64,000 nt of DNA from an uncultured bacterium (GTDB lineage: Bacteria; Patescibacteriota; Minisyncoccia; Phycocordibacterales; UBA9973). Location: the NCBI GenBank assembly GCA_903894565.1, contig CAITQP010000009.1, positions 8,576 to 72,575 on the forward strand, in the 5' to 3' direction. This document shows, in pieces, positions 27,136 to 48,696 of the stretch; position 1 is the first letter of the stretch; the number at the start of each line of letters is the position of its first letter. The translations under genes and the position numbers were made by a program. The notes below the pieces were generated by a model that saw nothing but the letters and a program-made list of their open reading frames with translations, ran no database searches and was not told the origin of the DNA.

Positions 27136-27561
27136 TTATTTCTTGACGGCAGCCTTAGGCTTTTTGTTACCGTAGAGAGAGCGCGACTGGCGACGCTTCT
27201 CAACACCTGCTGCATCGAGACGTCCGCGAACGATGTGGTAACGAACTCCGATAAGGTCCTTCACGCGTCCACCACGGAGCATGACGACTGAGTGTTCTTG
27301 GAGGTTGTGTCCTTCACCTGGGATGTAGGCAGTAACTTCCATTCCGTTTGAGAGACGAACGCGGGCGATCTTTCGGAGCGCTGAGTTTGGCTTCTTTGGA
27401 GTAGTCGTTGTGACCTTTGTACATACACCACGCTTGAACGGCGCCGAATAGTAGATTGGGCGGTTCTTAAGCGCGTTAAAACCACGCGAAAGCGCAGTAG
27501 TTCGAGACTTTTGGACGACCTGTTTGCGTCCCTTTTTTGAGAGTTGATTTATTGTAGGCAT
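27136..27561 (-). CDS. rpsL: 30S ribosomal protein S12
   Basis: [13 protein letters not shown] start. Trimmed from ORF 27136..27690, whose extension runs into the repeat element. Confidence 0.95.
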
Positions 27562-27677
27562 GTAGTGATTAAAATAAAAAGCTAGGCTACACCCAGAAGC
27601 AACTCGAACAATATCTAGGGGGAACTCGCTTAGGTCAGTACTATACATAGACTCTCGAGAAAATGCAAGAGGGAGGC

Positions 27678-27796
27678 GGGAAAACCACAAAATGCCCTTG
27701 TGAAAGTATCCGCGGAGCGCGACGGCGCGAGCGTGAGGCGAAAATCCTTCAGGATTTTACGCTGGTACTTTCACAAGGGCATTTTGTGGTTTTCCC
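27678..27796. repeat. structured GC-rich repeat element, family 2, copy B, in the rpsL leader
   Basis: Perfect 31-bp inverted repeat gggaaaaccacaaaatgcccttgtgaaagta / tactttcacaagggcattttgtggttttccc. It flanks the conserved core cggagcgcgacggcgcgagcgtgaggcga and the hairpin gcgaaaatcc-ttca-ggattttacgc. Confidence 0.65.
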
Positions 27797-27798
27797 GC

Positions 27799-29973
27799 CT
27801 ACACCTTGAATTTGCTCGACAAGTAGCCTTTTGAAACTGTGGCAGGCATGTCGGTGACCGCTGTTTGGTAGGTGCCGTCGGGCATTTTGCGATCAATGCG
27901 AATCTTGTAGTCGGCGTTTGGAAGGAGTGCGTAGTATCTTCCTTGCGCGTCGGCGATACGGTGCATGACTTCAACACCCGTTGAAACAGATGCTATACGA
28001 ATAAGCGCAAATGAAAGTGGTAAACCTGTTTTCGCATCCGTAATATCTCCATATGGTCGTGAATGTTTGCCGTATTGTCGGAGGAAGAAAAGTCCAACAT
28101 ACAAAACAAGCACAATAATGTTATATGGCTTCGGCGCAAAGACTGTTGCGAGCATTGCGATAACAAATCCCGTGCCGAAAAGCACGTCAGATACTCGACG
28201 AAAGATTTTGCCGCGACGGGAATAGAACTTCATGAGGTTCTGCTGATTTTTTGCAAATTCATTCCAATCGAAATTCATTGGATCCATTGGAATATTTTTG
28301 ATCACAACATCCCCCGCGTTCTCAACAGTGAAGTGTTCACCGAAATACAAGTCACGGTAGAGTTCGTCATGGTCACGTCCGACGAGCTGTTGTGATGGGA
28401 AAAGATAATTCGTTTTTTGAGCAAAGATTGAGTACACACCTGGCTTTGGCACAACGAATCCGAATCGTCCATCAAGGTCGGTCAAATTGGAAACAACATC
28501 TTCTCCTTCAATAGTTCGAAGTGTTACATATGCAGGATCAAGTGGTTGCTTTGTAATACTGTCATAGACAGTACCCCACGGCTGATGACGTTTGCGCAAA
28601 CCAAGTGCGGCAAGAAGAAGCGACCACAAACGAGCTGGGATCAAGAAAATTTCAGAGAATGAAAGTGGATTCAAAAAGAGTGCCGTGAAAATTGAGGTGG
28701 CAGCACTTGCGACTACTCCGACTGTCGCTACAACAGCTTCGGCTTTTGTCGCAGTACCTGTTCCGAGAATTGCTTTTATTTTTTTGTACGTCGTGCCAAC
28801 CGTCTGCGTCGTATTACAGTAACTATTTTTTACTTGCCCAATAACTTCTCCGACGATGTCAGTTGCAGTAGAAATCGGACAACCACCACCACTTCCAGTT
28901 GTTGTCGTCGTATGAACAATTGCGTAGACACACGTTCCTGATTGACGAAAATTGCTTGCCGTTGGGTCGGTACACTGTGTGCTTGCATAGGTGCAAGGAA
29001 AAGCGCCGAGATAATTGCTCGCGGTTGCATCAAGACACAGTGGTGGTGGTGCATAGGTACACGCACCAGTCGCTCCATAGTTTGTAGCTGCTGTATCAGT
29101 ACACGTTGTTGCGTACGAACACGGCAATGCTCCGCCATAGTTTGTAGCTGAACGATCCCGACACAATAATGCATACGTACAAGCACCCGAAGCACCGTAG
29201 TTTGTCGCCGTTGTATCAGTACAAATACGCGGATAGACACATGATCCAATTGCGCCATAATTTGTTGCAGTTGTATCAGTACACGTCAGAGTATAGGTAC
29301 ATGGTAATGATCCACCAAAATTCGTCGCCGTTCGGTCCTGACACAATAATGCGTAAGTACAAATACCAGCCGAACCATAATTGGTAGCGGTCGTGTCGGT
29401 ACAGAGTGTTGGATACACACACGGCAATGATCCTCCGTAGTTGAGCGCAGTTCGATCGAGACAAATGAGTGGAGGAGGCGGAGTTGTGTGTGTCGTGACA
29501 ACAACAGTTGGGCGCCAATCAGTCTTCACACAGGCGTCAGTCTTCGTACAATCAAACAGCATCCAACCTCCACCGGACACCCATGCATATCCAGAAAATT
29601 CTCCAGTGCTTGGGTTGATTGTGACTCCTCCGTGCGTAGGGTTGAAGTTCACCCAACTCGCGGTCGAGCCCCACGCATCTCCCGTAACTGTACCGCTCGT
29701 TGTGTTGTGCACTCCCCCGCTTACTGGCGCAAGATTAATCCAACCCAATTTGTTTGACCAGATATATCCGAAAAGCGTGGTGTCACTCACCGAAACTCCT
29801 CCACCATTTGTAGGTTTCCAATTGACGATTGAATACGCCGAGCAGTCTTCATTCGAACACAATCGAGCCGTGTGACTCGTCGCGTCTATTCCTCCCGTCG
29901 AAGCAAAAAGTGCGACCGGAATGAGAAATCCGATAACACTCGCAATCAGAATGAAAAGACGTGAGAGACGCAT
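27799..29973 (-). CDS. large membrane/surface protein with nine 20-aa Cys-containing tandem repeats and C-terminal TM/beta-sandwich-like region
   Basis: 724 aa. N-terminal signal/TM. GY(I/A)W..GW(I/V).F(N) repeats. 9x C.D.TATNYG....C.Y... repeats. Several TM helices later in the sequence. Confidence 0.6.
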   Translation of the reverse strand: MRLSRLFILIASVIGFLIPVALFASTGGIDATSHTARLCSNEDCSAYSIVNWKPTNGGGVSVSDTTLFGYIWSNKLGWINLAPVSGGVHNTTSGTVTGDAWGSTASWVNFNPTHGGVTINPSTGEFSGYAWVSGGGWMLFDCTKTDACVKTDWRPTVVVTTHTTPPPPLICLDRTALNYGGSLPCVYPTLCTDTTATNYGSAGICTYALLCQDRTATNFGGSLPCTYTLTCTDTTATNYGAIGSCVYPRICTDTTATNYGASGACTYALLCRDRSATNYGGALPCSYATTCTDTAATNYGATGACTYAPPPLCLDATASNYLGAFPCTYASTQCTDPTASNFRQSGTCVYAIVHTTTTTGSGGGCPISTATDIVGEVIGQVKNSYCNTTQTVGTTYKKIKAILGTGTATKAEAVVATVGVVASAATSIFTALFLNPLSFSEIFLIPARLWSLLLAALGLRKRHQPWGTVYDSITKQPLDPAYVTLRTIEGEDVVSNLTDLDGRFGFVVPKPGVYSIFAQKTNYLFPSQQLVGRDHDELYRDLYFGEHFTVENAGDVVIKNIPMDPMNFDWNEFAKNQQNLMKFYSRRGKIFRRVSDVLFGTGFVIAMLATVFAPKPYNIIVLVLYVGLFFLRQYGKHSRPYGDITDAKTGLPLSFALIRIASVSTGVEVMHRIADAQGRYYALLPNADYKIRIDRKMPDGTYQTAVTDMPATVSKGYLSSKFKV
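28923..29478. repeat. 60-bp tandem coding repeats (about 9 units) encoding the Cys-x-D-x-T-A-T-N-Y-G repeat
   Basis: Periodic DNA similarity and periodic protein sequence CTDTTATNYG..G.CTY.. within the CDS. Confidence 0.6.
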
Positions 29974-29982
29974 GATGTAAGT

Positions 29983-30645
29983 TTAGAAACCAAGTGACGT
30001 GCCCGTGATGAGCGTGAACAGTTTGCCAACGACAGGAAAAATGAGTGGCCAAAGATAAAACAAAAAGAGGATGAGAAGCGGAAGTGAAAGGTATTCGACC
30101 GTCGCCTGAAATTTCATCGTACTTCGAGGAAAGAGAGAGAAGAGAATTTTGGATCCATCAAGCGGTGGAATCGGAATGAGGTTAAAGAGCGCGAGCAACA
30201 AATTTACAATTACGATCACTCCCGCGATGTCGGTGAATGCTTGTGCTGAACTTCCGAGCACGAGCGGGGCAACGCGAATCAAAAGACCAAACAAAACAGC
30301 AAGCGAGAGGTTCACAAGAATACCGGCAGAAGCGACAATGGCAGTACCCCAACGTTTGTTACGCAGATTGCGTTCGTTGTATGGCACGGGCTTGGCCCAC
30401 CCGATCACAAATCCCGCATGAAAGAGCACGAGGAGAAGCGGGAGGATAACCGAACCGACCATGTCGAGATGACGCAGTGGGTTCATCGTAAGCCGTCCGG
30501 CATAGCGAGCAGTCGGGTCGCCCTGACTCTCGGCGGCGAAACCGTGTGCCACTTCGTGGACAACAACGGACATGATGAGAACGACGATATAGAAGATGGA
30601 TCCGAGAAAGCCTTGCATAGAATGTATCTCTATGATAGCATGCAC
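29983..30645 (-). CDS. site-2 protease family (M50) zinc metalloprotease
   Basis: HEVAHG HExxH motif in a TM helix, multi-TM, NLIPIPPLDG motif. Confidence 0.75.
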   Translation of the reverse strand: MHAIIEIHSMQGFLGSIFYIVVLIMSVVVHEVAHGFAAESQGDPTARYAGRLTMNPLRHLDMVGSVILPLLLVLFHAGFVIGWAKPVPYNERNLRNKRWGTAIVASAGILVNLSLAVLFGLLIRVAPLVLGSSAQAFTDIAGVIVIVNLLLALFNLIPIPPLDGSKILFSLFPRSTMKFQATVEYLSLPLLILFLFYLWPLIFPVVGKLFTLITGTSLGF

Positions 30646-30953: not shown

Positions 30954-31808
30954 CTATTCATTTTCCCCTTCACGGAGAAACGTGTGCCCGTCAGAAGTAA
31001 CAATGATTGTGCCGAGCTCATCGGTCCGCAGGATTGTGGCGCCATGGCGCTTGAGAGTGGTGAGGGTTTCGGATTTGGGGAGGCCGTATTTGTTGTTGCG
31101 ACCGGCGGAGATTACTGCCATGGTCGGCGCGACAGCGCCGACGAATGCGTCACTCGAGCTCGTCGTGGAACCATGATGCCCAACTTTCAAAATGGTGCTC
31201 GCTAATTCGTCTGCTCCATTTTCGGCGAGCACTATCCCCTCCGTCTTTTTTGTAGCATCACCCGTGAACATTATTTTTGTGGCCCCATACGCGAGAATGC
31301 CCATGATCGACCCATCATTCGTTGTCCACGTCGAGACATCGCGGTCAGGAAAGAGCACGGTGAATGTAACACCTGCATCAGGGTCGAGAGTGATCGTCAT
31401 CCCCTTTCGCGCCATGACCTCAGGAATATTTTGCTCGGCGATTTCTTTTTGAAATTGTGCATGTGTTGGCGTATGCGTCACCGTCCCCGGTTCAATCACA
31501 GCACCAACGTCATAATCACGGAGTAAGTCTATAAATCCAGCATAGTGATCGGCATCAGGATTCGTAACCATAATCACATTGATCGAGCGGTCGAGATATG
31601 GCATGACAGCAGAGAGCGGACTCTCGAGCGAACCTTCTGGACCTCCGTCAATAATCATCTGCGCACTATTCGGAGCTTCGATATATATCGCATCGCCTTG
31701 GCCGATATCGAGAAAGGCCACCCGCATAACATTTTGCGCTTGTGTGGTAAAGGGAAAAACAAGCGACACAATCGCCGGGATGAGCAAAAAGAACGTTCGG
31801 ATTTTCAT
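30954..31808 (-). CDS. secreted MBL-fold metallo-hydrolase, ComEC C-terminal-domain-like
   Basis: Signal peptide, DIGQGDA, NPDADHYAG, VGHHGS motifs of the ComEC/Rec2 beta-lactamase-like domain. Confidence 0.7.
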   Translation of the reverse strand: MKIRTFFLLIPAIVSLVFPFTTQAQNVMRVAFLDIGQGDAIYIEAPNSAQMIIDGGPEGSLESPLSAVMPYLDRSINVIMVTNPDADHYAGFIDLLRDYDVGAVIEPGTVTHTPTHAQFQKEIAEQNIPEVMARKGMTITLDPDAGVTFTVLFPDRDVSTWTTNDGSIMGILAYGATKIMFTGDATKKTEGIVLAENGADELASTILKVGHHGSTTSSSDAFVGAVAPTMAVISAGRNNKYGLPKSETLTTLKRHGATILRTDELGTIIVTSDGHTFLREGENE

Positions 31809-31858: not shown

Positions 31859-32446
31859 ATGGATTACTTCACAGCAAAAACATTCGCTCTTCCCGAGCTC
31901 AAAGGAATCTCAGCCAAGAACGTCGAAGAGCATCTCAAGCTCTACGCTGGCTACGTAAAATTTTCGAATTATATCCAAAACCAAATTCGAGAATTGAGTA
32001 AAGATGCCGAAAAGAATTCGTATGAGATCGCCGAACTCCAGCGTCGCTTCGCCTTCGAACACGATGGAATGAAGAATCACGAGATCTATTTCTCACAATT
32101 TGAAGGTGGTCCTGCCTCACTCATGAGTAGTGGTGCGCTCGCTCAGCAAATCGAAAAAGATTTCGGTAGCTTCGATGCATTCCTCGCTCGATTGAAAGCG
32201 CTCGCAATGACACGCGGAGTCGGATGGGCAATGCTTTACTACTGCAGTGAATCAGGACACTTGCTCACGCAGTGGGTAGACGAGCAACACATGGGTCACC
32301 TTTCGGGACCAAAACTCATTCTCGCCATCGACATGTGGGAACACTCATATGTCTATGATTATCCGACGAGCGAAAAGAAAAAATACGTTGAGGCTTTTTT
32401 TGAGAATTTGAATTGGGGTAAAGTTGAAGAGCGATTCAGTAAATAA
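31859..32446 (+). CDS. sod: Fe/Mn-family superoxide dismutase
   Basis: AIDMWEHSYV (D/H ligands), NHEIYF and an N-terminal His. All four metal-ligand positions look present. Confidence 0.75.
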   Translation: MDYFTAKTFALPELKGISAKNVEEHLKLYAGYVKFSNYIQNQIRELSKDAEKNSYEIAELQRRFAFEHDGMKNHEIYFSQFEGGPASLMSSGALAQQIEKDFGSFDAFLARLKALAMTRGVGWAMLYYCSESGHLLTQWVDEQHMGHLSGPKLILAIDMWEHSYVYDYPTSEKKKYVEAFFENLNWGKVEERFSK

Positions 32447-32460
32447 GGTTAGTAAAATTA

Positions 32461-32556
32461 AAAAACTCTTTTGAAAAGGCAACTCGTCGCGCGTGCTCGC
32501 GCGCGAGCTTCTCGGCGCCAAGCGCCTGCGAAAGGCCTTCTTCAAAAGAGTTTTTT
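32461..32556. repeat. structured repeat element, family 1, copy 2; doubles as bidirectional terminator between sod and comEC
   Basis: Identical 80-bp core to copy 1. Flanked by aaaaactcttttgaa / ttcaaaagagttttt, with T-runs on both strands. Confidence 0.7.
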
Positions 32557-34057
32557 AATTTTGCTCCACTTTTTCACTGTTCCATTTTCGATACAGCCAA
32601 TATATTAAACACACATATATAAATAAGCATAGCCATAGTGGAAAATGTTTAATGACAACTGAGGCGAATGGAACACGCGCGAAGAATTGTACGGCTCCTG
32701 TGATGTAGCTGAGGAGATAGTGTGTGATGAGCGAGGCGGGATATGCGAGTCCTAGACTGAATGCTCCGATGAGTCCCGCAAGTGCGCCGAAGCCCATGGC
32801 GAGTGGTACGGCAGGCAGGATTGCTACGTTTGCAGGAAGTGCGATGAGTGAGAGCGTGCCCATTTTGTAGAGGATGAACGGCAAGACTCCCGTTTGTGCG
32901 CCGAGGGTCACTGACATTAATTCGCGCAGTGGAATAATGTATGCGACTTTTTTGGGAACACGCGCGAATGCACGCTCGAGCACCGGAGTGACAAAGAGGA
33001 TACCGAGCGTAGCGAGGTATGAGAGTTGGAATGATACGTCGTAAACGAGATATTTTGGATCGTAGAGAATCATCAAAAATCCGGCGACGATGAGCGCGCG
33101 AAATGCATCGTACGTGCGACCCTTGGTCCGTGCAAAAAGTCCAATGAGTGCCATGATGCCCGCACGGATTGCCGATGATTGCATGCCTGTCATTACGACA
33201 AAGAGCACGATACAGAGCGCCCCACTCGCCGAAGCGACGCGCATAGAGAGACCAAGAATATCGACGAAAAAACTTTGCAGTGCGTTTGCGACAACTGTCA
33301 CGTTGTATCCCGAAAGTGCAATCATGTGAATCGTGCCAGTCGTGACGAGGTCGTCGCGAAATTGTGGATCAATGTTTGCTTTGACTCCGAGATTGAGACC
33401 GGCGAGAAGATCGGCTTGTGGTGCAGGCAAAATACGATGAAACGATTTTACAATTACATTTTTTACGGGAATCAAATGAGCGACAACCCAATTGCCATGA
33501 TTATGTTCGAGCACAGTCGCGCTCGCATTTTTGATTTGATACACAATGTTATTTTTATACAAATATGAAATGTAATCGAATTCAGTACCTTGATCGGTCA
33601 TGAAATTCTCGGGACGTGCGAGTGTGCCGTGCACAAGCACAGTATCGCCGTACGCGAGATTCATATTTGATTTCGTGCGAACAGAAAAACTGAGGCCGGG
33701 TGTTTCGAGCGTAAAACTATCTCCATATGATTTTGCCGACGGTTCGTCGACGATGAGTCCCTCGACCGTAACGCTTGTGCCGATATTATTTTCAAAATCT
33801 TTTGTATTTGGTTTAGCGATTTCTGCACGATATGCCCCGAGCACAAATGCACAGATGAAGAGACTCGCGAAGAGTGTGTATGATCTCGCCCTCTGGATGA
33901 AAGTGGCGATGATGAGGAGGCAAACGCCGACCGCCCCCGCGACGATAGTCGCGGGGGCGGTCATATGAGAAAGCGAAGCAAAAATAATTCCGGTGGCAAA
34001 GCCTACAATACCAGAAGCCAAATATACATCTATGTTTTGTGAGCGAGCGTGCTCCAT
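32555..34057 (-). CDS. comEC: ComEC/Rec2 family competence protein (membrane domain)
   Basis: 500 aa polytopic membrane protein. IHMIALSGYNVTVVA matches the competence-domain signature. Confidence 0.75.
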   Translation of the reverse strand: MEHARSQNIDVYLASGIVGFATGIIFASLSHMTAPATIVAGAVGVCLLIIATFIQRARSYTLFASLFICAFVLGAYRAEIAKPNTKDFENNIGTSVTVEGLIVDEPSAKSYGDSFTLETPGLSFSVRTKSNMNLAYGDTVLVHGTLARPENFMTDQGTEFDYISYLYKNNIVYQIKNASATVLEHNHGNWVVAHLIPVKNVIVKSFHRILPAPQADLLAGLNLGVKANIDPQFRDDLVTTGTIHMIALSGYNVTVVANALQSFFVDILGLSMRVASASGALCIVLFVVMTGMQSSAIRAGIMALIGLFARTKGRTYDAFRALIVAGFLMILYDPKYLVYDVSFQLSYLATLGILFVTPVLERAFARVPKKVAYIIPLRELMSVTLGAQTGVLPFILYKMGTLSLIALPANVAILPAVPLAMGFGALAGLIGAFSLGLAYPASLITHYLLSYITGAVQFFARVPFASVVIKHFPLWLCLFIYVCLIYWLYRKWNSEKVEQN

Positions 34058-39424: not shown

Positions 39425-40702
39425 CTAATTTGTCTCTTTCCAAAACAGAATTGTCGGCGGTGTGCTTGCCCCAGTTGAAAATACCGTTCCGAGAAGTGCC
39501 GAATCATATGTAACCGAGGAAGTATCAGCAAGATGCACGGCCTGCCCCGCCACAAAACTCGCTGAGGCAGTCCCATTGAGTACTGCCGTTCCTCCACGTG
39601 CATACACGATTGCAGAACCTGTTCCTCGATACAATACAGCACTGGTACTTGTACTATTTGAAAGGAGTAAAACATAGCTTCCCGGAGTCCCCGAACCGAC
39701 AATATGACTCGCACCTGAAGTTGTAATCGTACCATCGACAATAATCATTCCACTATTTGCTCCAAAACTTGAAGAGAGGTTGATGCTTCCTGCCCCTGTA
39801 ATCGTAAGATTCCCTGTCACCCAGAGAACACCCGAGAGCGTCAAATTCGCAGAATCTGGTATCGTCAGGTCGCCACTAATCTTTTTTGGGCCAAGCGTAA
39901 CTCCAGCCAAAGAAACACTGTAACTTCCAGAGATAACTCCCCCGCTCACAGCATCTGCTTCCCACCCCGAAATATCAGTACTCGTAATTGGAAGCTCTTC
40001 GTAGACAGGATCAGGATAAGTCGAACACGGACCAGAAGAACTCACCACGAGCGTACAGTAGAGTACCCCCGTCGCGTTCGTATAATCAACAGTATGTGCA
40101 TACACATTACCAACACCACCAACGCCCACATGAATCGGATGCGCAGCATCTTCTCCCGTAATCACCCCATACGTCCCCGACGATGAATTCGCAACAGTCG
40201 CAGTACCACCAATACTTACACCATCTTGTCCATGAACCTGCGCGTCTGCGTGAATATCACCCGTAACTGAGGATGAATCGGCCATGTCCAAACCTCCATC
40301 GTCAGTCATTACCGCGTAGCGAAGTGGGATTCCCGTGCCAACAATCGCACGCAATGTACTGGTACGTTCGTCTCCTAATGAGTTCCCAGTGCCGGCAATC
40401 TCCTCAACACCTCCACCCATATTTGTGATTGTTGTCGCAGCAGAAACATTGCCAATAAAAAATGAGGTGCTTGAACCAAGGTGCATTCCATTTTTAAGAC
40501 GATAATATGCATCCTCAACTCCAGATTCTCCTGCACTATAACTTTGACGTGAAGTAATTGCATCAAGTCCAATACGATACTCACGTGCCGCGGGAGCAGA
40601 CAATCCAAGCACGAGAAGTACCGAGGCGAGAATAAAGAAGATCACTGCGATCATCATCGCAGCTCCCCGTTCAGTATTTTGTTGGAATAATTGCATACTC
40701 AT
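39425..40702 (-). CDS. large membrane-anchored Gly/Ser/Thr-rich protein, likely pilus-associated
   Basis: 425 aa. N-terminal TM. Repetitive G/S/T-rich beta-rich sequence. First gene downstream of three pseudopilin genes. Confidence 0.45.
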   Translation of the reverse strand: MSMQLFQQNTERGAAMMIAVIFFILASVLLVLGLSAPAAREYRIGLDAITSRQSYSAGESGVEDAYYRLKNGMHLGSSTSFFIGNVSAATTITNMGGGVEEIAGTGNSLGDERTSTLRAIVGTGIPLRYAVMTDDGGLDMADSSSVTGDIHADAQVHGQDGVSIGGTATVANSSSGTYGVITGEDAAHPIHVGVGGVGNVYAHTVDYTNATGVLYCTLVVSSSGPCSTYPDPVYEELPITSTDISGWEADAVSGGVISGSYSVSLAGVTLGPKKISGDLTIPDSANLTLSGVLWVTGNLTITGAGSINLSSSFGANSGMIIVDGTITTSGASHIVGSGTPGSYVLLLSNSTSTSAVLYRGTGSAIVYARGGTAVLNGTASASFVAGQAVHLADTSSVTYDSALLGTVFSTGASTPPTILFWKETN

Positions 40703-40708
40703 ATTCGT

Positions 40709-41257
40709 TTAATAACTTCCACGAAGCGCGACAGTATCAGTCAACGATATCGAACGATCAATTGGCGAGCGGAGTGAATGAAGTGTCATTTCAACACGCA
40801 CGGCACTTCCGTGTGCTGAAACAATTTTCCGGAAAATAAGAGACGTAACTGAAACACTTTCTCCCGTCAGATCTGTTGCCGCACCATAACTGCTATCGGT
40901 CATTTCAAGCGCTCCACTGACCGTATCAAATACTACTGTTTTTGGTGCACCTGAAACATCAGTCGCGTTTAATTTAAGGACCCCGGGATTTGTAGCAAAC
41001 ACGCTTGTGGTCAAATCAATACTTGTTGCTCCACGTATTTCACGAGTGACTCGCTCCATTGATACATGTGCCGAATCAAGTAGATCGTTTGTCGAACGCA
41101 TCACTCGATAACTCTTGGTCATGCCGATCAAACAACTAATCAACACCGTTGAGAGTGTAATAAAAAGCATCATGTACACAATAATTTCAACGAACGAATA
41201 CCCTCCCTCTGAATGAGTCTTATCGCCAGTATGTAATTGCTGTTTTCTATTCCACAT
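40709..41257 (-). CDS. type IV pilin-like (pseudopilin) protein
   Basis: Prepilin motif G-YSFVE with Glu at +5 followed by a hydrophobic helix. Confidence 0.6.
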   Translation of the reverse strand: MWNRKQQLHTGDKTHSEGGYSFVEIIVYMMLFITLSTVLISCLIGMTKSYRVMRSTNDLLDSAHVSMERVTREIRGATSIDLTTSVFATNPGVLKLNATDVSGAPKTVVFDTVSGALEMTDSSYGAATDLTGESVSVTSLIFRKIVSAHGSAVRVEMTLHSLRSPIDRSISLTDTVALRGSY

Positions 41258-41260
41258 ATA

Positions 41261-41761
41261 TTATGAAAAAATATCCGAGAGATAAAATGAATCCGTCTTC
41301 GTCTGTACCTGTCCGTTACTCTCTCTCCACGTAACAGTTTCCGTAAAGAAACGTGTCCCCGTATCAAGCGTCCCCGAAACATCAATATCATCCCCCGCAT
41401 TACGTACGACGTTCGATGGAACAATCGATCGAGTATATGCACCAACCTGTCCATCTGCCGGGTTTGTTGAAAGCGACCAAGTATTCGTAGCTGAATCAAA
41501 TAGAGGATAGTATGTATCGCCGGCCGTTAAGCTCGAAATAGTTGCCCAGCTGTCGTCTCGAACAATCCGCGTTGCCTCTGATCCCTCTTCAAGTAATAAG
41601 GCAGCCGTATACGTGTTGAGTGCACGATGAGACACCGCAATGGATCTTCCCGCAATCGCAATAATTGAAACGAGTGACAAAGAAATAATCCCCGTTGCGA
41701 TAACGATTTCTACAAGGTTAAATCCTTTCTCTCCTGAATTATGTACAGATGAAAATATCAT
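41261..41761 (-). CDS. type IV pilin-like (pseudopilin) protein
   Basis: Prepilin motif KG-FNLVE with E at +5, hydrophobic N-terminal helix. Confidence 0.65.
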   Translation of the reverse strand: MIFSSVHNSGEKGFNLVEIVIATGIISLSLVSIIAIAGRSIAVSHRALNTYTAALLLEEGSEATRIVRDDSWATISSLTAGDTYYPLFDSATNTWSLSTNPADGQVGAYTRSIVPSNVVRNAGDDIDVSGTLDTGTRFFTETVTWRESNGQVQTKTDSFYLSDIFS

Positions 41762-41782
41762 TTATATTCAAGCACAAAAAAC

Positions 41783-42271
41783 TTATCGACTACTCGCTTG
41801 CCCGGCATGAGTAATTGTAACTGTTTTCGCACCACTTGTAGATGCAGCCTCTCGCACAACAAAAGTGCCGTCTTCTTCTGTATCACCTGTAAGTGAATCA
41901 AAAATAACATCACTACCTCCACCGGTAAGCGATATTGATGTAATCTCTGCAGAACGATCAATCAGTACTACGCGGTTATCTACGGCAGTAGACGAATATG
42001 TCGTACCAGAAAAGAGAACTGCTTTTGTCGTCTCGAGATGTACACCGTATTGAGATCCAGATTCATGAGCGAGCGTACGCGATCGAGCTTCGTCGAGAAG
42101 TGCAGTGACGTCTCCCACACCGTTATCAATCGCTTGATGCCCAAGAAATGTTCCAAGGTTCAACGCAACGACGCCAGACAAAATACCAATCACAACAATA
42201 CCAATCATAAGCTGAAGAAGCATGAAACCTCGTGATTTTTTTTGAGAGAAGAATGATTTCATACAATACAT
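41783..42271 (-). CDS. type IV pilin-like protein (Gln at +5)
   Basis: RG-FMLLQLMIGIVVIG prepilin-like N-terminus. Confidence 0.5.
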   Translation of the reverse strand: MYCMKSFFSQKKSRGFMLLQLMIGIVVIGILSGVVALNLGTFLGHQAIDNGVGDVTALLDEARSRTLAHESGSQYGVHLETTKAVLFSGTTYSSTAVDNRVVLIDRSAEITSISLTGGGSDVIFDSLTGDTEEDGTFVVREAASTSGAKTVTITHAGQASSR

Positions 42272-42274
42272 TTG

Positions 42275-43492
42275 TTATGACGAAAGTGTACTCACAAGAC
42301 CGTACATCGGTGAAATCATTGATACGGCAAAAAATCCAACGGCAGCCCCGATAAAAATCATAAGTATCGGCTCAACGATCGTTGAAAGATTCTTTGTTTG
42401 GGCATCCACCTCTTCTTCATAATACGTAGCAATATCGGCAAGCATCGATGTTAAGGCACCAGTCTCCTCGCCGACAGCAACCATCTCTCCCACCATGATT
42501 GGATACAGATCTGGTGCTCCTTTAAACACCGAAGAAAGTGTTTCTCCCTTTTGGAGAGCTATACTCGCGCGCTCAAGCACGTCTTTGTAGTATGAATTTT
42601 GCACAACATCTTTTGTGATTGAAAGGGCGCGTGTCATTTCTACGCCCGCAGACAAAAGTGACGAAAGTGTTCGAGCCGTGCGGGCAGTATTTACTTCCTG
42701 AACAATACTTCGAATCGCTGGAAAAGCCAGTGCGATGCGATCATTCGTTCGTTGCATTTGTTTAGAATTAAAAAAGTAGAAAAAAGCAGCAAATACAACA
42801 ACGAGACAATCAAGGAAAAAGATTGGATGAGTTGAAACAGCATCTGAAATCGTAATCACGAATTGAGTCGATGCTGGCAGTTTTGTTCCAAAATCCTTAA
42901 AAATTTTCGTTAGTGTCGGAACGACGAATACAAGCATCAATGCCCCAATAAGCAGAATCGCAGAAATGACAATCGTTGGATACATTAATGCTCCGCGAAC
43001 TTTGCGATTCAATTTATAACTTTTTTCAAGGTTGTCACCGATTTCCTTCAACGTCCCTGCAAGATTTCCTGATTCCTCACCCGCACGTACCATTGATACA
43101 ACAAGCGGAGGAAAAACATCGGCAAATTTTGCGAGACCTTCGGACAAAGTGCCTCCTTGATTGATCGTCGCAAGTAAACCATCAAAAATGGTGACAAGCA
43201 TCGCGTTCTTGTTTTGTTTCTTTTCGACTTCAAGCGCTCGAAACAACGGCAACCCAGCGGAAAGCATGCCCGCCAAGTTATGCATGAATACGATTTTTTC
43301 ATGCAAACTCACATGAGCGAAGATGCGAGAAAATCCAAGTGCTACTCGATTTTTAGGTATGATCTCATGAACAGTAATCGGGGTCTGTGCTCGTTCACGA
43401 AGTTCCTTTGCGACAGTAAAACGATCGGCCGCTTCAAGCGTGCCTTCGATTGTTTCTCCTTGCGCATCTCGCGCTGTATAAGCAAATAGCAT
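42275..43492 (-). CDS. pilC: type IV pilus assembly platform protein PilC (GspF family)
   Basis: 405 aa, two GspF repeats, 3 TM. Confidence 0.85.
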   Translation of the reverse strand: MLFAYTARDAQGETIEGTLEAADRFTVAKELRERAQTPITVHEIIPKNRVALGFSRIFAHVSLHEKIVFMHNLAGMLSAGLPLFRALEVEKKQNKNAMLVTIFDGLLATINQGGTLSEGLAKFADVFPPLVVSMVRAGEESGNLAGTLKEIGDNLEKSYKLNRKVRGALMYPTIVISAILLIGALMLVFVVPTLTKIFKDFGTKLPASTQFVITISDAVSTHPIFFLDCLVVVFAAFFYFFNSKQMQRTNDRIALAFPAIRSIVQEVNTARTARTLSSLLSAGVEMTRALSITKDVVQNSYYKDVLERASIALQKGETLSSVFKGAPDLYPIMVGEMVAVGEETGALTSMLADIATYYEEEVDAQTKNLSTIVEPILMIFIGAAVGFFAVSMISPMYGLVSTLSS

Positions 43493-43503
43493 TGTAGTAA
43501 AAA

Positions 43504-45255
43504 TTATTCAGAGATAACACGGAGCACTTCCTCTGTCGTCGTCAGTCCCTGCACCGCAAGGAAAATCCCATCCTCAAGCATCGTCATCATTCCCTCCTTA
43601 CGTGCTTGATCGTTGATCAAGTCTTGAGACGCACCCTTCAAGATCAATTCTCGGATTGTTTGTGTCACGGTCAGCACCTCGTGAATTCCAACACGTCCTT
43701 TGTAACCATCTTCTGACTCTTCGCTTTTCTTTGGGCGGTAAAATGGAATTTGTTGCCAGGTAATCGTCGCATCAATAATTTTTTCTTTTTTCAAAAGTGC
43801 GAGCATCGCATCAAGATCAATGAGTTTACCGAGGGCTGCGAGTTCGGCATCGTTCAGCACATACTTTTCGCGCGCATGAGTGAGTCGGCGAACAAGACGC
43901 TGCGCCATCACTGTCTTTACTGTTGATACGATCAAGAATGGCTCAATACCCATATCAATCATACGAGGAATCGCTCCAGCGGCACTGTTCGTATGTATAG
44001 TTGAAAGCACTAGGTGACCAGTCAGCGAAGCATTCACTGCAAGGCCAGCTGTTTCTCCGTCACGAATTTCTCCCACCATGATGATGTCCGGATCCTGACG
44101 AAGCAATGTGCGAAGGCCGTTTGCAAACGTAAGACCGATCTCAGGTTTTACTTGTGTCTGGTTGATGCGTGGTACCTGATATTCGATTGGATCTTCAACA
44201 GTAGAGATGTTCACATCAGGAGTATTCAGAATATCGAGCATCGTATAAAGTGTGGTTGTTTTTCCACTTCCTGTTGGTCCAGCCGCAAGAATCATTCCTG
44301 CGCGTTGCTTCATCGCCGCATGAATACGTTCAAGCGCGTCACCGTGAAATCCAAGATTCTCAAGTGTATATCCATGTGAACTTTCACGGAGCAAACGAAG
44401 TACCGTCTTCTCACCATAGTAGGTTGGGAGTGTCGAAACACGGAAAGAGACTTTTTCTCCATCGCTTTCCATCTTGAAACGACCGTCTTGAGGAAGACGT
44501 TTTTCGTCGAGCTTCAATCCTGAAAGCACTTTGATACGGGCAGTCAAACCTGGCGCGACATCTTTTGGTAACGTCATCGCATCATGCAAAATACCATCGA
44601 TGCGATAGCGAACAACAAGCGATTCCTCTCCTGGCTCAATATGAATGTCAGATGCATTCTGACTGATCGCATGAGCAATAAGCGTGTCGGCAATTTTAAC
44701 AATAGGCAAATCTTCGGCAAGTGCTTTCAATTCCTTTTCACTTGCGTCAGCAGGCAATCCTTCAGCAATCGTTTTCGCAGAAACTGATTCCTTGGCGATA
44801 ATCGCATCGAATTCTGCTTTGAGACTTTTCTTGTATTGCTGAAGTGCCGATTTGATCGAAGCCTCATCAGTCAAACATGGAACAATCTTGAGTCCAGTCT
44901 TTTTCTTTACGAAATCAATCGTCGGGAGATCGTCAACATCAAGCATCGCGACCTGAAGACGATCGTCATTGCGCTTGAAGGCAACGACATTGTTTGTGCG
45001 AGCAATTGGTTCTGGAATCAGTGCAAGTACTTCTGGCTCAATTTTTTCATTTCCGAGGAATACAAACGGAATACCGATCACGTAAGCTTCAATACGTTTC
45101 AAATCTGCTGCTTTCAACTTTCCAGCTGCGACGAGCGCTTGTCCAATTTTTTCTCCCTTCCCTTCAATTGTTTTTTCTGCAGCGGTAATGTCTGTTGTCG
45201 ACACAAGTCCACTTTCAACAATAAATCTTTTGAGTTGCTCAGGATTAATTTGCAT
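43504..45255 (-). CDS. pilB: type IV pilus assembly ATPase PilB (GspE family)
   Basis: 583 aa with Walker A LAAGPTGSGKTTTLY, Asp box, His box and N-terminal GSPII_E_N-like domains. Confidence 0.9.
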   Translation of the reverse strand: MQINPEQLKRFIVESGLVSTTDITAAEKTIEGKGEKIGQALVAAGKLKAADLKRIEAYVIGIPFVFLGNEKIEPEVLALIPEPIARTNNVVAFKRNDDRLQVAMLDVDDLPTIDFVKKKTGLKIVPCLTDEASIKSALQQYKKSLKAEFDAIIAKESVSAKTIAEGLPADASEKELKALAEDLPIVKIADTLIAHAISQNASDIHIEPGEESLVVRYRIDGILHDAMTLPKDVAPGLTARIKVLSGLKLDEKRLPQDGRFKMESDGEKVSFRVSTLPTYYGEKTVLRLLRESSHGYTLENLGFHGDALERIHAAMKQRAGMILAAGPTGSGKTTTLYTMLDILNTPDVNISTVEDPIEYQVPRINQTQVKPEIGLTFANGLRTLLRQDPDIIMVGEIRDGETAGLAVNASLTGHLVLSTIHTNSAAGAIPRMIDMGIEPFLIVSTVKTVMAQRLVRRLTHAREKYVLNDAELAALGKLIDLDAMLALLKKEKIIDATITWQQIPFYRPKKSEESEDGYKGRVGIHEVLTVTQTIRELILKGASQDLINDQARKEGMMTMLEDGIFLAVQGLTTTEEVLRVISE

Positions 45256-45368
45256 TTGATGAATTAAATTACTCCTAGTAGTATACCAAAAAAAGAAATC
45301 TTACGACAGTAAATGAGACAAGTGGAAATGTATTTACTGATCTAAAAAATGAATCTCCGAGCTATTCA

Positions 45369-45408
45369 AAAAAATAACCTGTCTCGAAATCGAGACAGGT
45401 TATTTTTT
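45369..45408 (-). terminator. rho-independent terminator downstream of the 440-aa secreted protein gene
   Basis: aaaaataacctgtctcgaaatcgagacaggttatttttt. Confidence 0.6.
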
Positions 45409-45427
45409 AAATGATTTATGTATTCAA

Positions 45428-46750
45428 TTATGGTGTGACTGGCGTCAACAAGTATCCAGCGACAGGGAGTGGCCAAATATAGTGACCAGATGATCCTCCA
45501 CAGTAAGGGTGCGTTGTGGTAATACCATTCCAATAATAACCACTGTATGTACCAGCTCCACCACTGAGATATGATGAGCCATTGTCAGAAAAATATGCAC
45601 ATCCATAACCGTTTGAAGGATTTGAGATAACAGTGTAGAGCGGTGCGATGTTACCAGCGTGCAAAACGGTCGTAGCAACAGATGTCGCTTTGATCGCGTA
45701 AGCATATCCTGGAGCAGGATCTGTATACGTTGTATTCGCAAAATGCGATTCATTTCCAGTAACATTTATTCCTCCACCGACTACATCAAGCTTCGATCCA
45801 GAGGTGACAGCACCTGAACCTCCAAGTTTCAATGCACCTTGAATAGTAACCTGACCAGTCGATCCATCAATAGACATATGTCCACCAAGAACACCCGGAC
45901 CATCAAAATTCACAGTACCAGGAGCGACACTCAACACGGGGCTTGTTCCGTAATCGACGTCTGCACCGATACGTGATGTACCTGAGACAAAGAGTTTTGT
46001 ACTTGGGTAGATGTTTGTAGCCGTACCAAGCATCACAGTACCAGGGTTCGTATTATAAAGGCTGGTTCCTGAAACTGTCCAAGAGGGAGCAGTGGTTGTT
46101 CCGGTTGATGCCGTTGGACAATTCGATCCGTTCTGAAGACAGACTGGAATACCTTGAACATAAATTGTGTTGTAACCACTTGTACTTGTCGCAGGGACAG
46201 TACTTCCATCGTTTTGTGCGATACCGAGCGATCCACGAATACCAACACTTCCCGCAAACAACGCAGCACTTTGAGGCAAATTGGTCGCCGAATATGTTCC
46301 AACCAACGGATCGGCCTTCACATATAACTTAGGGACTTTTGCTGTTCCACTAACAGTAAACGTCGACCCGATAGAGACCAATCCTTGCAAGAAGGTAGCT
46401 CCCCAGTTTGAAAATCCATCGGTATCGGTAATTCCATTCACAGTGAATTTTGATACTGGTACCCAACCAGCAATTGGCGTAGGACACGGAATCGTTCCAA
46501 CGGTAAGATGTCCGTCCTTTTGTTGATCGAGTGATCCCACATTGATTGGAGCAGTAACATTTCCGGCCGGAGCAGTCGACGTTGGTGGTGTCCACGATGA
46601 AGCACCGTATGTTGAACAACCACTCGTACCTGTTGTCGTGGTCGTTGAACCAGAGCCTCCGGATGAGACGAGTGCAGCGTTTGCTAGTGGAGTAAAAGCA
46701 AGAAACGCGAGAACAAAAACTGAGAGACCGATTTTTTTTACCATATACAT
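45428..46750 (-). CDS. secreted Gly/Ser/Thr-rich protein (signal peptide), unknown function
   Basis: 440 aa, N-terminal signal peptide ..LANA^AL, low-complexity beta-rich. Confidence 0.5.
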   Translation of the reverse strand: MYMVKKIGLSVFVLAFLAFTPLANAALVSSGGSGSTTTTTGTSGCSTYGASSWTPPTSTAPAGNVTAPINVGSLDQQKDGHLTVGTIPCPTPIAGWVPVSKFTVNGITDTDGFSNWGATFLQGLVSIGSTFTVSGTAKVPKLYVKADPLVGTYSATNLPQSAALFAGSVGIRGSLGIAQNDGSTVPATSTSGYNTIYVQGIPVCLQNGSNCPTASTGTTTAPSWTVSGTSLYNTNPGTVMLGTATNIYPSTKLFVSGTSRIGADVDYGTSPVLSVAPGTVNFDGPGVLGGHMSIDGSTGQVTIQGALKLGGSGAVTSGSKLDVVGGGINVTGNESHFANTTYTDPAPGYAYAIKATSVATTVLHAGNIAPLYTVISNPSNGYGCAYFSDNGSSYLSGGAGTYSGYYWNGITTTHPYCGGSSGHYIWPLPVAGYLLTPVTP

Positions 46751-46776
46751 TATATTAATTGATTAAATAATAAGGA

Positions 46777-48369
46777 TTATTTCTCTTGCCAAGGGAACGA
46801 GCCTCGAATTCCAGTACCACCTGACGAACCAATCGTGATCGTTGCTGGACTACATGATGAAACTCCAACAACTGAAACACTTGGCCCCGCATTCACGACT
46901 ATTGAACTTGAGACTGTTGGCATAGGTCCATCAATCATGAGTCCAAGACGTCCTGCTGAAGTCGTGATGCTTGAGGCAGGCAGACCTGTCGTCATATCTA
47001 CAAATGTAGCAGTCAGACCAGGAGCCCCAGTTAAATCTACCGTGAAATCTGTACTGTGGAATGTCGGAGTCCACGCAATATTTAACGAAACTTCGAAATG
47101 TACATGCGTACCTGATGGCGCAAAGTATGGTCCTGGACGGATAGCACAGGAAGGAGTGTCTGTCGGAGGAACATTCACAAGAACTGTGTCGTTTACAACA
47201 GAAGTACCCGTACATTGTATCTTGTAAACATATGTCATCGTACTAACCGTAGTATTTTCTGGAAGAGTAATGAGCGTACCGGTACTTGATGTTCCAATCG
47301 TTGTTGTTGGACTCCAGTCTGACATCGAAGGTGTCGATGAAGCAGTACACGAGGTCACGTCAGTAGATGAAGTCCACAAAAGTGTCTCTGCGCCACCGGA
47401 CCAGTCAGGCATCGTGATCGGTCCATCAGTTGGACCACTTGATCCTTCGATCTTCAGATCCACGTACGGAGCACTTGTTACGCCTCCAACAATCACCTGT
47501 ATCGAATCAGAAATAGGTGATGATCCAGTTGCCGTAGGATTACAAGTGACCTTATAGGTATATGTTGCAGGTGTACTTAATGAGTAACTCACCACAGAAC
47601 TTGTACTCGAAACAGGTACTGAGCCAGACCAATCGGTCGCAGATGAAATAGTCGAAGGAGAAACTGAAGCTGAACAAGAGGAGACACCGGTTGAAGTCCA
47701 CTTGAGCTGTGCTGTGCCAGTGCCTGTCGACGAAACCACATTCAATGGCCCATTCGTAAACGTGAGGAGTGCTGGATCGAAAACAGTAAGATCAACGGTT
47801 GCTGAGACAGCCGAACTCATTGTTACGCGGCTAAAATCAACCCATCCAATAGTATATGAGCCCCACGCATAACCTGAATAGGTGCCAGTAGATGAGTCAA
47901 CAGTAACGCCATACAAACTACCGCTTGTCGGGCTAAGACTAATACAACCGTCAGCGCCATTTGTATATGCACTACTTATTGCGCGTGCCCATCCCGTCAT
48001 GCGTCCGCTAGCAAATGAAGCTTGTGATCCACAAAATGAGACGTCGGCCGGATTAAATGAAACCCATCCAACGTTTGAACTCCACGCATAACCAGAAAAG
48101 AGTTGCGTAGTAGCATCAAGTGTAACTTTATAGTTTGAAGTAGAACAAACGCTTCCACCAACCGTGCTTCCTTCAGCGCAGTTAAGACTAAACCAGCCCA
48201 CCGTTGAGCTCCATGCATATCCGTGAAGATCACCAGAAAGACCTGAAGCCGCATGAGCGGTACGTGGTGAGGCAGAAGTGTATGCGATTGAAGCAACTAA
48301 TCCAAGAGCACAAACCAGTACTCCTAAGATAACGCTATTTTGCTTCACTATTTTTTTAAAAGTATTCAT
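46777..48369 (-). CDS. secreted Ser/Thr-rich protein with GYAWS...GW(V/F)SFN repeats
   Basis: 530 aa, signal peptide. At least four copies of the GYAWS..VGW..F(N) motif, which also occurs in the 724-aa protein at 27799..29973. Confidence 0.55.
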   Translation of the reverse strand: MNTFKKIVKQNSVILGVLVCALGLVASIAYTSASPRTAHAASGLSGDLHGYAWSSTVGWFSLNCAEGSTVGGSVCSTSNYKVTLDATTQLFSGYAWSSNVGWVSFNPADVSFCGSQASFASGRMTGWARAISSAYTNGADGCISLSPTSGSLYGVTVDSSTGTYSGYAWGSYTIGWVDFSRVTMSSAVSATVDLTVFDPALLTFTNGPLNVVSSTGTGTAQLKWTSTGVSSCSASVSPSTISSATDWSGSVPVSSTSSVVSYSLSTPATYTYKVTCNPTATGSSPISDSIQVIVGGVTSAPYVDLKIEGSSGPTDGPITMPDWSGGAETLLWTSSTDVTSCTASSTPSMSDWSPTTTIGTSSTGTLITLPENTTVSTMTYVYKIQCTGTSVVNDTVLVNVPPTDTPSCAIRPGPYFAPSGTHVHFEVSLNIAWTPTFHSTDFTVDLTGAPGLTATFVDMTTGLPASSITTSAGRLGLMIDGPMPTVSSSIVVNAGPSVSVVGVSSCSPATITIGSSGGTGIRGSFPWQEK

Positions 48370-48381
48370 ATTGTGTAGTGT

Positions 48382-48696
48382 TTATTGATTCGAAGCCTTT
48401 CCAATCGAATCGAGAATCGCCGCTCTGTCTGTCATGTTGGGAGCCGGAGTCTTTTTTTCGAGCGTCTTAAGAATATCCGTTTTTTGTTTGTCAGTAATAG
48501 AGCCTTGTACTGAATTATTGCCGATCTGGTCAATTACTGCCTTGTGTTCACTTTCAACAGTAGTAGCGGGTGAAGTAACACTTTTTTTTATGAAAACAAG
48601 ACCAACAGCAATAAGTGCTGCGACAACTATTATAATAAGAAGAACTTTTGGCTTTGCACGCGACGAACGAACTGATTGCTTCATTGGAGCATCCAT
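48382..48696 (-). CDS. small membrane-anchored hypothetical protein
   Basis: 104 aa, single TM after a basic N-terminus. Confidence 0.4.
   Translation of the reverse strand: MDAPMKQSVRSSRAKPKVLLIIIVVAALIAVGLVFIKKSVTSPATTVESEHKAVIDQIGNNSVQGSITDKQKTDILKTLEKKTPAPNMTDRAAILDSIGKASNQ

Follow-up and report, generated by a model that had tools for sequence, protein, structure and literature searches.

Within a 64,000-nucleotide stretch of DNA from an uncultured patescibacterium (the window; contig CAITQP010000009.1, positions 8,576 to 72,575), we studied the product of a gene on the reverse strand at 27799..29973, a protein of 724 residues that belongs to a Patescibacteria-wide family. Sequence comparison divides the members into a conserved N-terminal head, a stalk that differs from protein to protein and a conserved membrane base. 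The protein appears to be a modular bacterial surface protein, with two modules that are absent from Pfam and NCBIfam and a membrane base of an unusual kind. Our preferred reading, to which we assign a probability of about 0.45, is that the protein is anchored in the membrane and that its conserved head binds a ligand, likewise conserved, in the envelope or pilus of the cell itself. The initial annotation of this DNA had seen in it, together with a secreted protein of 530 residues next to the type IV pilus (T4P) genes, a family of surface proteins that might work with the pilus and competence apparatus, for example in host attachment; head and base are strongly conserved, from which we infer a conserved ligand, not host attachment.

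The family touches on envelope building, attachment and DNA uptake in Patescibacteria, an area that is little understood. These bacteria are ultra-small, and every member that has been brought into culture lives attached to other microbes (PMC11623550). Domain libraries have missed the building blocks described below, namely a head of ~130 residues that is confidently modelled and has no recognised fold, a 20-residue, putatively disulfide-closed mini-repeat present in more than 1000 protein clusters across phyla, and a base made of two hairpins and two transthyretin-like domains. The head marks one conserved protein of the T4P operon and one conserved protein beside the ribosomal str operon, and both offer concrete targets for structural work and, in the few relatives that can be cultivated, for genetics. 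What is gained is improved annotation and a hypothesis open to testing, not a new principle.

A conserved head and base around a variable stalk

The layout of the 724-residue open reading frame (ORF), as read from the sequence, the family alignment and an AlphaFold2 (AF2) model, is as follows (TM, transmembrane helix).

27799..29973 (−): whole ORF, 724 residues, stop codon at 27799-27801; member of the Patescibacteria-wide family of head–stalk–base membrane proteins
29902..29973 (−): Sec-type signal peptide by sequence reading, residues 1-24; MRLSR, a hydrophobic core, and cleavage between LFA and ST
29500..29901 (−): 'GYAWS' head domain, residues 25-158, from alignments and the AF2 model
28924..29463 (−): nine two-cysteine repeats forming the variable stalk, residues 171-350; pattern C-x-D-x-x-A-x-N-[YF]-x5-C-x-Y in two alternating subtypes
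28747..28923 (−): linker, residues 351-409; Thr/Gly-rich, with the Cys pair C365/C386, then a long amphipathic helix (373-404) towards the membrane
28588..28746 (−): first helical hairpin (TM1-TM2), residues 410-462, from AF2 and the alignment
28219..28587 (−): first transthyretin-like (CarboxypepD_reg) domain and NIPMDPxxFDWNEFAK, residues 463-585; PF13620 at 467-524, conserved columns
28060..28218 (−): second helical hairpin (TM3, APKPYN turn, TM4), residues 586-638; Arg/Lys flanks at both outer ends
27802..28059 (−): second transthyretin-like β-sandwich, residues 639-724; second PF13620 stretch, AF2 predicted local distance difference test score (pLDDT) ~90

A homologue search returned 462 proteins, with full-length matches at 35-94 % identity, and all the homologues that bear a taxon label are Patescibacteria (Paceibacterota, Nomurabacteria and Parcubacteria). 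The best name that the databases give them is 'carboxypeptidase regulatory-like domain-containing protein', and a literature search combining this name with Patescibacteria found nothing relevant. Most of the matches span only the C-terminal ~50 % of the protein at high identity, and nearly all of them carry the N-terminal motif too. Alignment of 87 sequences gave two conserved blocks around a middle that could not be aligned; the head and the base account for 30 invariant columns and some 90 nearly invariant ones, and the middle has practically none. With local hidden Markov models (HMMs), head and base (the latter residues ~405-724 here) were found together in 110 of 120 homologues, the ORF in the window matching the two models with E-values of 8e-60 and 2e-153, respectively. 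Among the 110 members the middle region measures 77-623 residues (median 149); it is a Pro-rich linker in most, contains chitobiase-C, VWA or FG-GAP domains in others, and carries the Cys repeat in only 17, in 1-11 copies. A head–variable stalk–base architecture that is wide in Patescibacteria is thereby established at the level of alignments and profiles. The base also occurs behind other N-terminal regions, without a head, in P0021, P0024, P0029, P0032 and P0066. When one genome of each GTDB species was scanned, 479 loci were found to encode a relative; the best 80 of these lie in metagenome-assembled genomes of the Paceibacteria type, some of them labelled 'uncultured Candidatus Saccharibacteria', which we take to be a generic label, or only 'bacterium'.

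The AF2 model of the full protein, computed with the family alignment, has a mean pLDDT of 76, with ~95 in the head and ~70-82 in the Cys repeats, where there is almost no regular secondary structure. A helix at residues 3-22 coincides with the signal peptide, the position of which is conserved in the family alignment; four further helices of 23-27 residues each (410-434, 439-462, 586-612 and 616-638) and two β-domains (482-560 and 642-723) make up the C-terminal part. The C-terminal transmembrane helices and transthyretin-like segments noted in the initial annotation are thus borne out, by these helices and by a PF13620 match of 45.2 bits. All 24 Cys residues of the protein precede TM1, and 18 of them lie in the Cys repeats. 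A pilin was ruled out, the protein having no class III signal peptide (cleavage between G and F/M-x-x-x-E, the N_methyl motif), as was a sortase substrate, there being no C-terminal LPXTG.

The GYAWS head and the type IV pilus operon

The head consists of three β-meander repeats of ~30 residues, with hairpins at residues 69, 98 and 128, and ends in …ACVKTDWRP. Three N-terminal copies of the aromatic hairpin motif had been counted at the outset; two are canonical (GYIWS…GWINL at 69 and GYAWV…GWMLF at 128), whereas the one at 98, GDAWG…SWVNF, is degenerate. Two conserved Cys pairs, C39/C44 and C142/C148, presumably form disulfides. Modelled alone, the ~130-residue head is all-β, with a pLDDT of 92 and a predicted template modelling score of 0.87, and its alignment across divergent lineages has 45 % mean column identity and 19 invariant columns. 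The isolated head had no match in Pfam at E ≤ 10, an NCBIfam scan, made with the whole 724-residue protein only, returned nothing over it, and its profile matched no PDB sequence. Foldseek gave no match either (best E-values of 0.44 in PDB and 0.37 in BFVD), and comparison with CW_binding_1 and similar cell-wall-binding hairpin repeats yielded neither a profile match nor a fold match.

The 530-residue protein shares this domain. BLASTP of the two window proteins against each other gave an E-value of 2e-8 over 92 residues; an HMM that drew on relatives of the 724-residue protein alone matched the 530-residue ORF at 1.4e-17 and no other ORF of the window; and hhalign of the N-terminal profiles of both families gave a probability of 99.6 % and an E-value of 3.6e-24 over 89 columns. 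The resemblance noticed by eye in the initial annotation is therefore significant in alignment, and these scores identify it as real homology. At least four copies had been claimed for the 530-residue protein: the motifs at 50, 93 and 166 are canonical and the fourth, at 126, is degenerate. The version of the domain in the pilus operon has additional Cys-containing loops and one extra hairpin. Hundreds of relatives of the 530-residue protein, which is itself identical to the database protein P0121, share only the GYAWS region with it; in ~110 of 120 matches the head is the N-terminal module directly after the signal peptide, and what follows is PKD, cadherin-like, MAM or no recognisable domains. 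The head is reused in this way, as N-terminal module with varied passenger domains, in hundreds of other secreted Patescibacteria proteins.

The operon in the window runs from 39425 to 48696 (−) and encodes, in order, a 104-residue TM protein, the 530-residue GYAWS protein, a secreted, Gly/Ser/Thr-rich protein of 440 residues, PilB, PilC, three pilin-like proteins and a PilX-like protein of 425 residues.

46777..48369 (−): 530-residue secreted protein, second gene of the T4P operon, with a Sec-type signal peptide
47830..48246 (−): expanded GYAWS domain of the 530-residue protein, residues ~42-180
43504..45255 (−): PilB, PF00437 with PF05157
42275..43492 (−): PilC, PF00482
41783..42271, 41261..41761 and 40709..41257 (−): pilin-like genes (162, 166 and 182 residues)

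With PilB and PilC identified by Pfam, the earlier placing of the 530-residue gene near pilus genes holds. No recognisable PilM, PilN, PilO or PilD was found in the operon, and the 104-, 440- and 425-residue proteins matched no Pfam family, nor the 104- and 425-residue proteins any NCBIfam family. The 530-residue protein has no class III signal peptide, and so lacks the hallmark of a pilin or minor pilin. Orthologues of 35-63 % identity occupy the same operon position in L005, L006 and L007, and a relative of 324 residues lies directly upstream of PilB in L089; the conserved order is a small TM protein, the GYAWS protein, one to three secreted proteins, PilB, PilC and three to four pilin-like genes. 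Linkage to the pilus was thus found in all four look-ups of the orthologous type, and in five of the six metagenome loci that are divergent from NusA (the orthologous position) and have room downstream. Taking all the metagenome GYAWS loci for which 5 kb or more of downstream sequence is available, PilB follows in 6/29 and is not within reach in the other 23. Two further relatives of the 530-residue protein sit elsewhere, one of them in an S10 ribosomal-protein operon. Within what is a large GYAWS superfamily, a single orthologue group is therefore linked to the pilus.

In the window, the 724-residue gene lies ~13.5 kb from PilB, the nearest T4P gene, and ~16.8 kb from the 530-residue gene, and no pilus genes adjoin its family in the five contexts that were annotated (the window and L001-L004), the best 80 loci having been screened for other genes. 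The expected co-occurrence with pilus genes consequently applies to the orthologues of the 530-residue protein but not to the 724-residue gene or to most GYAWS loci. These observations bear on an alternative that we regard as unlikely, that the protein is a host-attachment adhesin acting with the T4P/competence machinery, its head recognising the host or the pilus and its stalk projecting the head. The same head in the conserved second gene of the T4P operon speaks for such an adhesin, as do the VWA or FG-GAP cassettes, typical of adhesins, in the middle of some members. The distance from PilB, the absence of adjoining pilus genes in the five annotated contexts and the small share of GYAWS loci followed by PilB speak against it, and the head is conserved across divergent lineages, unlike the tips of host-specific adhesins.

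In L090 (8001-9806), a 601-residue GYAWS protein is encoded inside the S10 operon, between rplB and rpsS; the parallel with the 724-residue gene, just upstream of rpsL, suggests that such surface proteins ride in highly expressed operons.

A cysteine mini-repeat as stalk module

Nine units of 20-22 residues, located by regular expression and manual reading, start at residues 171, 191, 211, 231, 251, 271, 291, 313 and 334, each with Cys at positions 1 and 15, and two subtypes alternate, CTDTTATNYGxxGxCTY and CxDRTATNYGGSLPCxY. Composition-preserving shuffling of residues 161-360 yielded not even one match to the unit pattern in 10,000 trials, so that the nine two-Cys units with their 18 Cys residues, as first described, stand. 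The 60-bp period also ascribed to the DNA did not survive: Tandem Repeats Finder detected no tandem repeat in the nucleotide sequence, because the units share only ~62 % identity as nucleotides (and ~60 % as amino acids). They are therefore old repeats, preserved as protein sequence. Recent expansion at the DNA level was ruled out by the divergence of the units and the alternation of subtypes.

To define the distribution of the repeat, a 40-column profile of a double unit, made from 33 sequences, was searched against 1.84 billion cluster representatives. It found 1266 proteins at E ≤ 1e-3, of which 374 reached ≤ 1e-10 and 70 reached ≤ 1e-30; a single protein has as many as 35 copies. Among the best 147 new matches the family base was present in only eight and the head in six. 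The carriers include Bacteroidota proteins with the Por_Secre_tail signal of type IX secretion system (T9SS) cargo (P0251, P0372, P0317 and P0301), a PG_binding_1 protein and giant FG-GAP/CAP proteins; others, with a single C-terminal membrane anchor, are surface proteins that probably come from Patescibacteria, the library having no taxonomy. The profile search thus places the same C-x-D-x-x-A-x-N-Y…C-x-Y mini-repeat in the T9SS cargo and giant surface proteins of Bacteroidota. The repeat was also seen in the type IV pilin-like protein P0277 (N_methyl according to Pfam) and in P0370 and P0375, of which the pilin-like N-terminus was recognised by eye only, and could therefore be displayed on pilus subunits; its presence in pilin-like (N_methyl) proteins counts in favour of the adhesin account.

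Neither Pfam nor NCBIfam appears to know the repeat. The best Pfam matches of the isolated region were CLIP_1 (E 0.054) and Vitelline_membr (E 0.075), far below the cut-offs, the NCBIfam scan of the whole protein gave nothing over the repeats, and in ten other repeat-bearing proteins the repeats had no Pfam coverage. The repeat region had no match among PDB sequences, and literature searches with the motif strings found no paper. The repeats accordingly fall outside the curated adhesin-repeat families. A word-indexed homologue search with the isolated repeats also returned a blank, despite a database protein of 94 % identity; we judge this to be an artefact of retrieval, because local phmmer with the same region recovered 21 known relatives, with E-values down to 1e-107. 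Repetitive queries seem to defeat the candidate retrieval of the word-indexed search.

On the profile evidence, the Cys repeat is a widespread, promiscuous extracellular mini-module that makes up the stalk in this protein, and its presence here reflects domain shuffling rather than a family signature. The initial annotation had let both repeat types define one family, a view that their independent distributions contradict, with the base in 8 of 147 repeat matches and the repeat in 17 of 110 family members. A disulfide between C1 and C15 probably closes each unit, because the number of Cys residues is even and isolated single units occur elsewhere; relatives have occurrences of one to a few copies.

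Membrane base, gene neighbourhood and a proposed ligand of the head

No part of the protein is more conserved than the base, in which two helical hairpins alternate with two transthyretin-like domains. TM1, which varies and has many small residues, is followed by the conserved turn NPLSFSE; TM2 contains the nearly invariant residues P446, R448 and W450, followed by RKRH, and an invariant Glu/Arg pair. CarboxypepD_reg (PF13620) is the only family that Pfam recognises in the 724-residue protein; it covers two stretches of the base, both domains matching, and scores 45.2 bits for the whole protein, against a gathering threshold of 32.3 (E 1.3e-11), and 50.1 bits for the isolated C-terminal half. 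Foldseek with the full model found transthyretin, 5-hydroxyisourate hydrolase, CnaB and SdrD-B folds at E-values of ~3e-3, among them CnaB2 and stalk domains of SdrD and BcpA, and the base had no match among PDB sequences. CarboxypepD_reg is a transthyretin/prealbumin-like family related to CnaB and SdrD-B, but the alternation of its domains with two membrane hairpins is not described there, and the database family name carries no functional information for these proteins. MSCRAMM-type proteins such as SdrD, with head, B-repeat stalk and wall anchor, follow a similar head–stalk–anchor logic with variable stalk modules, and the transthyretin/CnaB-like fold is present in them too. However, the head of the 724-residue protein is N-terminal and of an unrelated, unclassified fold, its stalk would be formed by 20-residue disulfide loops rather than Ig-like B repeats, its anchor is polytopic and helical without an LPXTG sorting signal, and it is the stalk that varies while the head is conserved.

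The genes that surround the family were counted in the best 80 of the 479 loci, screened only for M50, MBL (metallo-β-lactamase fold), S12, S7 and EF-G. In the window, the upstream genes are these.

29983..30645 (−): small M50 (site-2-protease-type) intramembrane metalloprotease, PF02163, with HEVAH and NxxPxxxLDG motifs
30954..31808 (−): signal-peptide-bearing MBL-fold protein resembling the C-terminal domain of ComEC, TIGR00361 positions 433-663, E 1e-34
31859..32446 (+): Fe/Mn superoxide dismutase, between the two ComEC parts
32555..34057 (−): ComEC channel part as a separate gene (DUF4131 and Competence)

Only 9 bp separate the end of the M50 gene from the start of the 724-residue ORF, and rpsL (start at ~27.56 kb), rpsG and fusA follow downstream. 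In 46 of the 80 loci an M50 gene precedes the family gene on the same strand, and at least 12 of these 46 no longer have rpsL as a neighbour. Of the 74 loci with room, 35 have rpsL as the next gene downstream, and about 30 of the 80 have an MBL gene upstream. In at least seven loci without adjacent rpsL, the MBL gene, the M50 gene and the family gene are kept together. The genes form a conserved block in the order ComEC-type MBL protein, M50 protease, family gene and rpsL.

The proximity of a ComEC-type MBL gene in many loci lends something to the adhesin account, against which stands the M50–gene–rpsL block that the 80 loci display. The preferred reading, of a membrane-anchored protein with a ligand in its own envelope, proceeds as follows. 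The Sec signal peptide exports the N-terminal part; the nine disulfide-closed units would form a protease-resistant, semi-rigid stalk that sets the distance between head and membrane; and the head would bind a wall polymer, an S-layer or the pilus rather than diverse host surfaces, so that the protein might tether the membrane to the outer envelope, while in the protein of the pilus operon the head might act as a docking module. We favour an own-envelope ligand because the head is strongly conserved and reused on many passengers, as anchoring modules are, because constant ends around a variable middle are the opposite of what host-specific adhesins present, and because the gene context (M50, family gene, rpsL, rpsG and fusA) is of a housekeeping kind. 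CW_binding_1, GW and SLH-type modules are terminal anchoring modules joined to many passenger domains. Like choline-binding CW_binding_1, GW and SLH-type modules, GYAWS may be viewed as a terminal module of short Gly-Trp/Tyr tandem hairpins, but its period is ~30 residues rather than ~20, and it has putative disulfides.

Several points weigh against this reading. Binding by the head is argued from analogy with aromatic hairpin-repeat wall-binding modules, to which there was no match in profile or fold. Some members have VWA and FG-GAP cassettes of a kind usual in adhesion to foreign ligands, and the conservation of the base exceeds the needs of a passive anchor. In addition, the indications for the topology of the base conflict. 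The signal peptide and two hairpins would place both transthyretin-like domains outside, on the side of the ectodomain, which agrees with the lengths of the helices in the AF2 model and with the Pro-rich C-terminal tails that some members have; but the net charge across the 87 sequences is +2.9, +3.1 and +1.9 on the flanks facing the domains and ~0 in the hairpin turns, and by the positive-inside rule the domains would therefore be cytoplasmic, so that hairpin count and charge rule disagree.

The conservation of the base gives room for two other accounts. In one, which we consider distinctly improbable, the protein serves the adjacent M50 protease as substrate or partner, and cleavage at the NP…LIPxRLW helix would part the surface portion from the base, for signalling or shedding. 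A protease gene 9 bp upstream, and upstream in 46 of 80 loci with the 12 or more that lack adjacent rpsL, fits this, as do the helix-breaking, nearly invariant residues of TM2 (the N-P turn, P446 and R448) and a base conserved far beyond what an anchor needs. Yet the block also holds unrelated housekeeping genes (RecJ, RNase H, superoxide dismutase, L28, S12 and S7), paralogues of the family (the FG-GAP forms; L009, L011-L013 and L015) have no M50 neighbour, and paralogues without the head have none of the block neighbours, for which reasons the adjacency of M50 and rpsL may be inherited synteny. The other account, which we hold to be highly doubtful, makes the base itself the functional part, a transporter-like or metal/ligand-handling module to which head and stalk are accessory. 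The conservation is indeed highest in the base, with the Glu/Arg pair of TM2 and invariant Asp, Tyr and Pro residues in the first transthyretin-like domain, and the base occurs with headless N-terminal regions in the five proteins named above; but four helices with turns of 6-7 residues make a small bundle, no transporter or enzyme family was matched in Pfam, NCBIfam or PDB sequences, and the conserved residues of the first domain are largely the generic CarboxypepD_reg signature.

Patescibacteria are nucleotide-auxotrophic cells that depend on a route of DNA uptake. A more speculative extension, which we think improbable, is that GYAWS is a Patescibacteria-specific module for docking to the cell's own pilus or envelope, and that the trio of MBL protein, M50 protease and 724-residue protein is a unit coupling surface contact or DNA capture to intramembrane proteolysis or DNA uptake; the GYAWS protein of the pilus operon would then be its counterpart at the pilus.

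ComEC is split in the window, into a channel gene and a separate, signal-peptide-bearing MBL gene. Downstream of the 724-residue gene, the mechanically called S12 ORF, 27136..27690 (−), begins with TTG and has ~45 additional N-terminal residues; the true start is probably an internal ATG near 27560, which would leave an intergenic region of ~240 bp after the 724-residue gene. In L003 (3413-5974), an 853-residue Peptidase_S74 protein (a tail-fibre/endosialidase chaperone) is encoded between the M50 gene and the family gene, and insertions of 2-3 kb at the same place were seen in L027, L049, L054, L061, L063 and L079.

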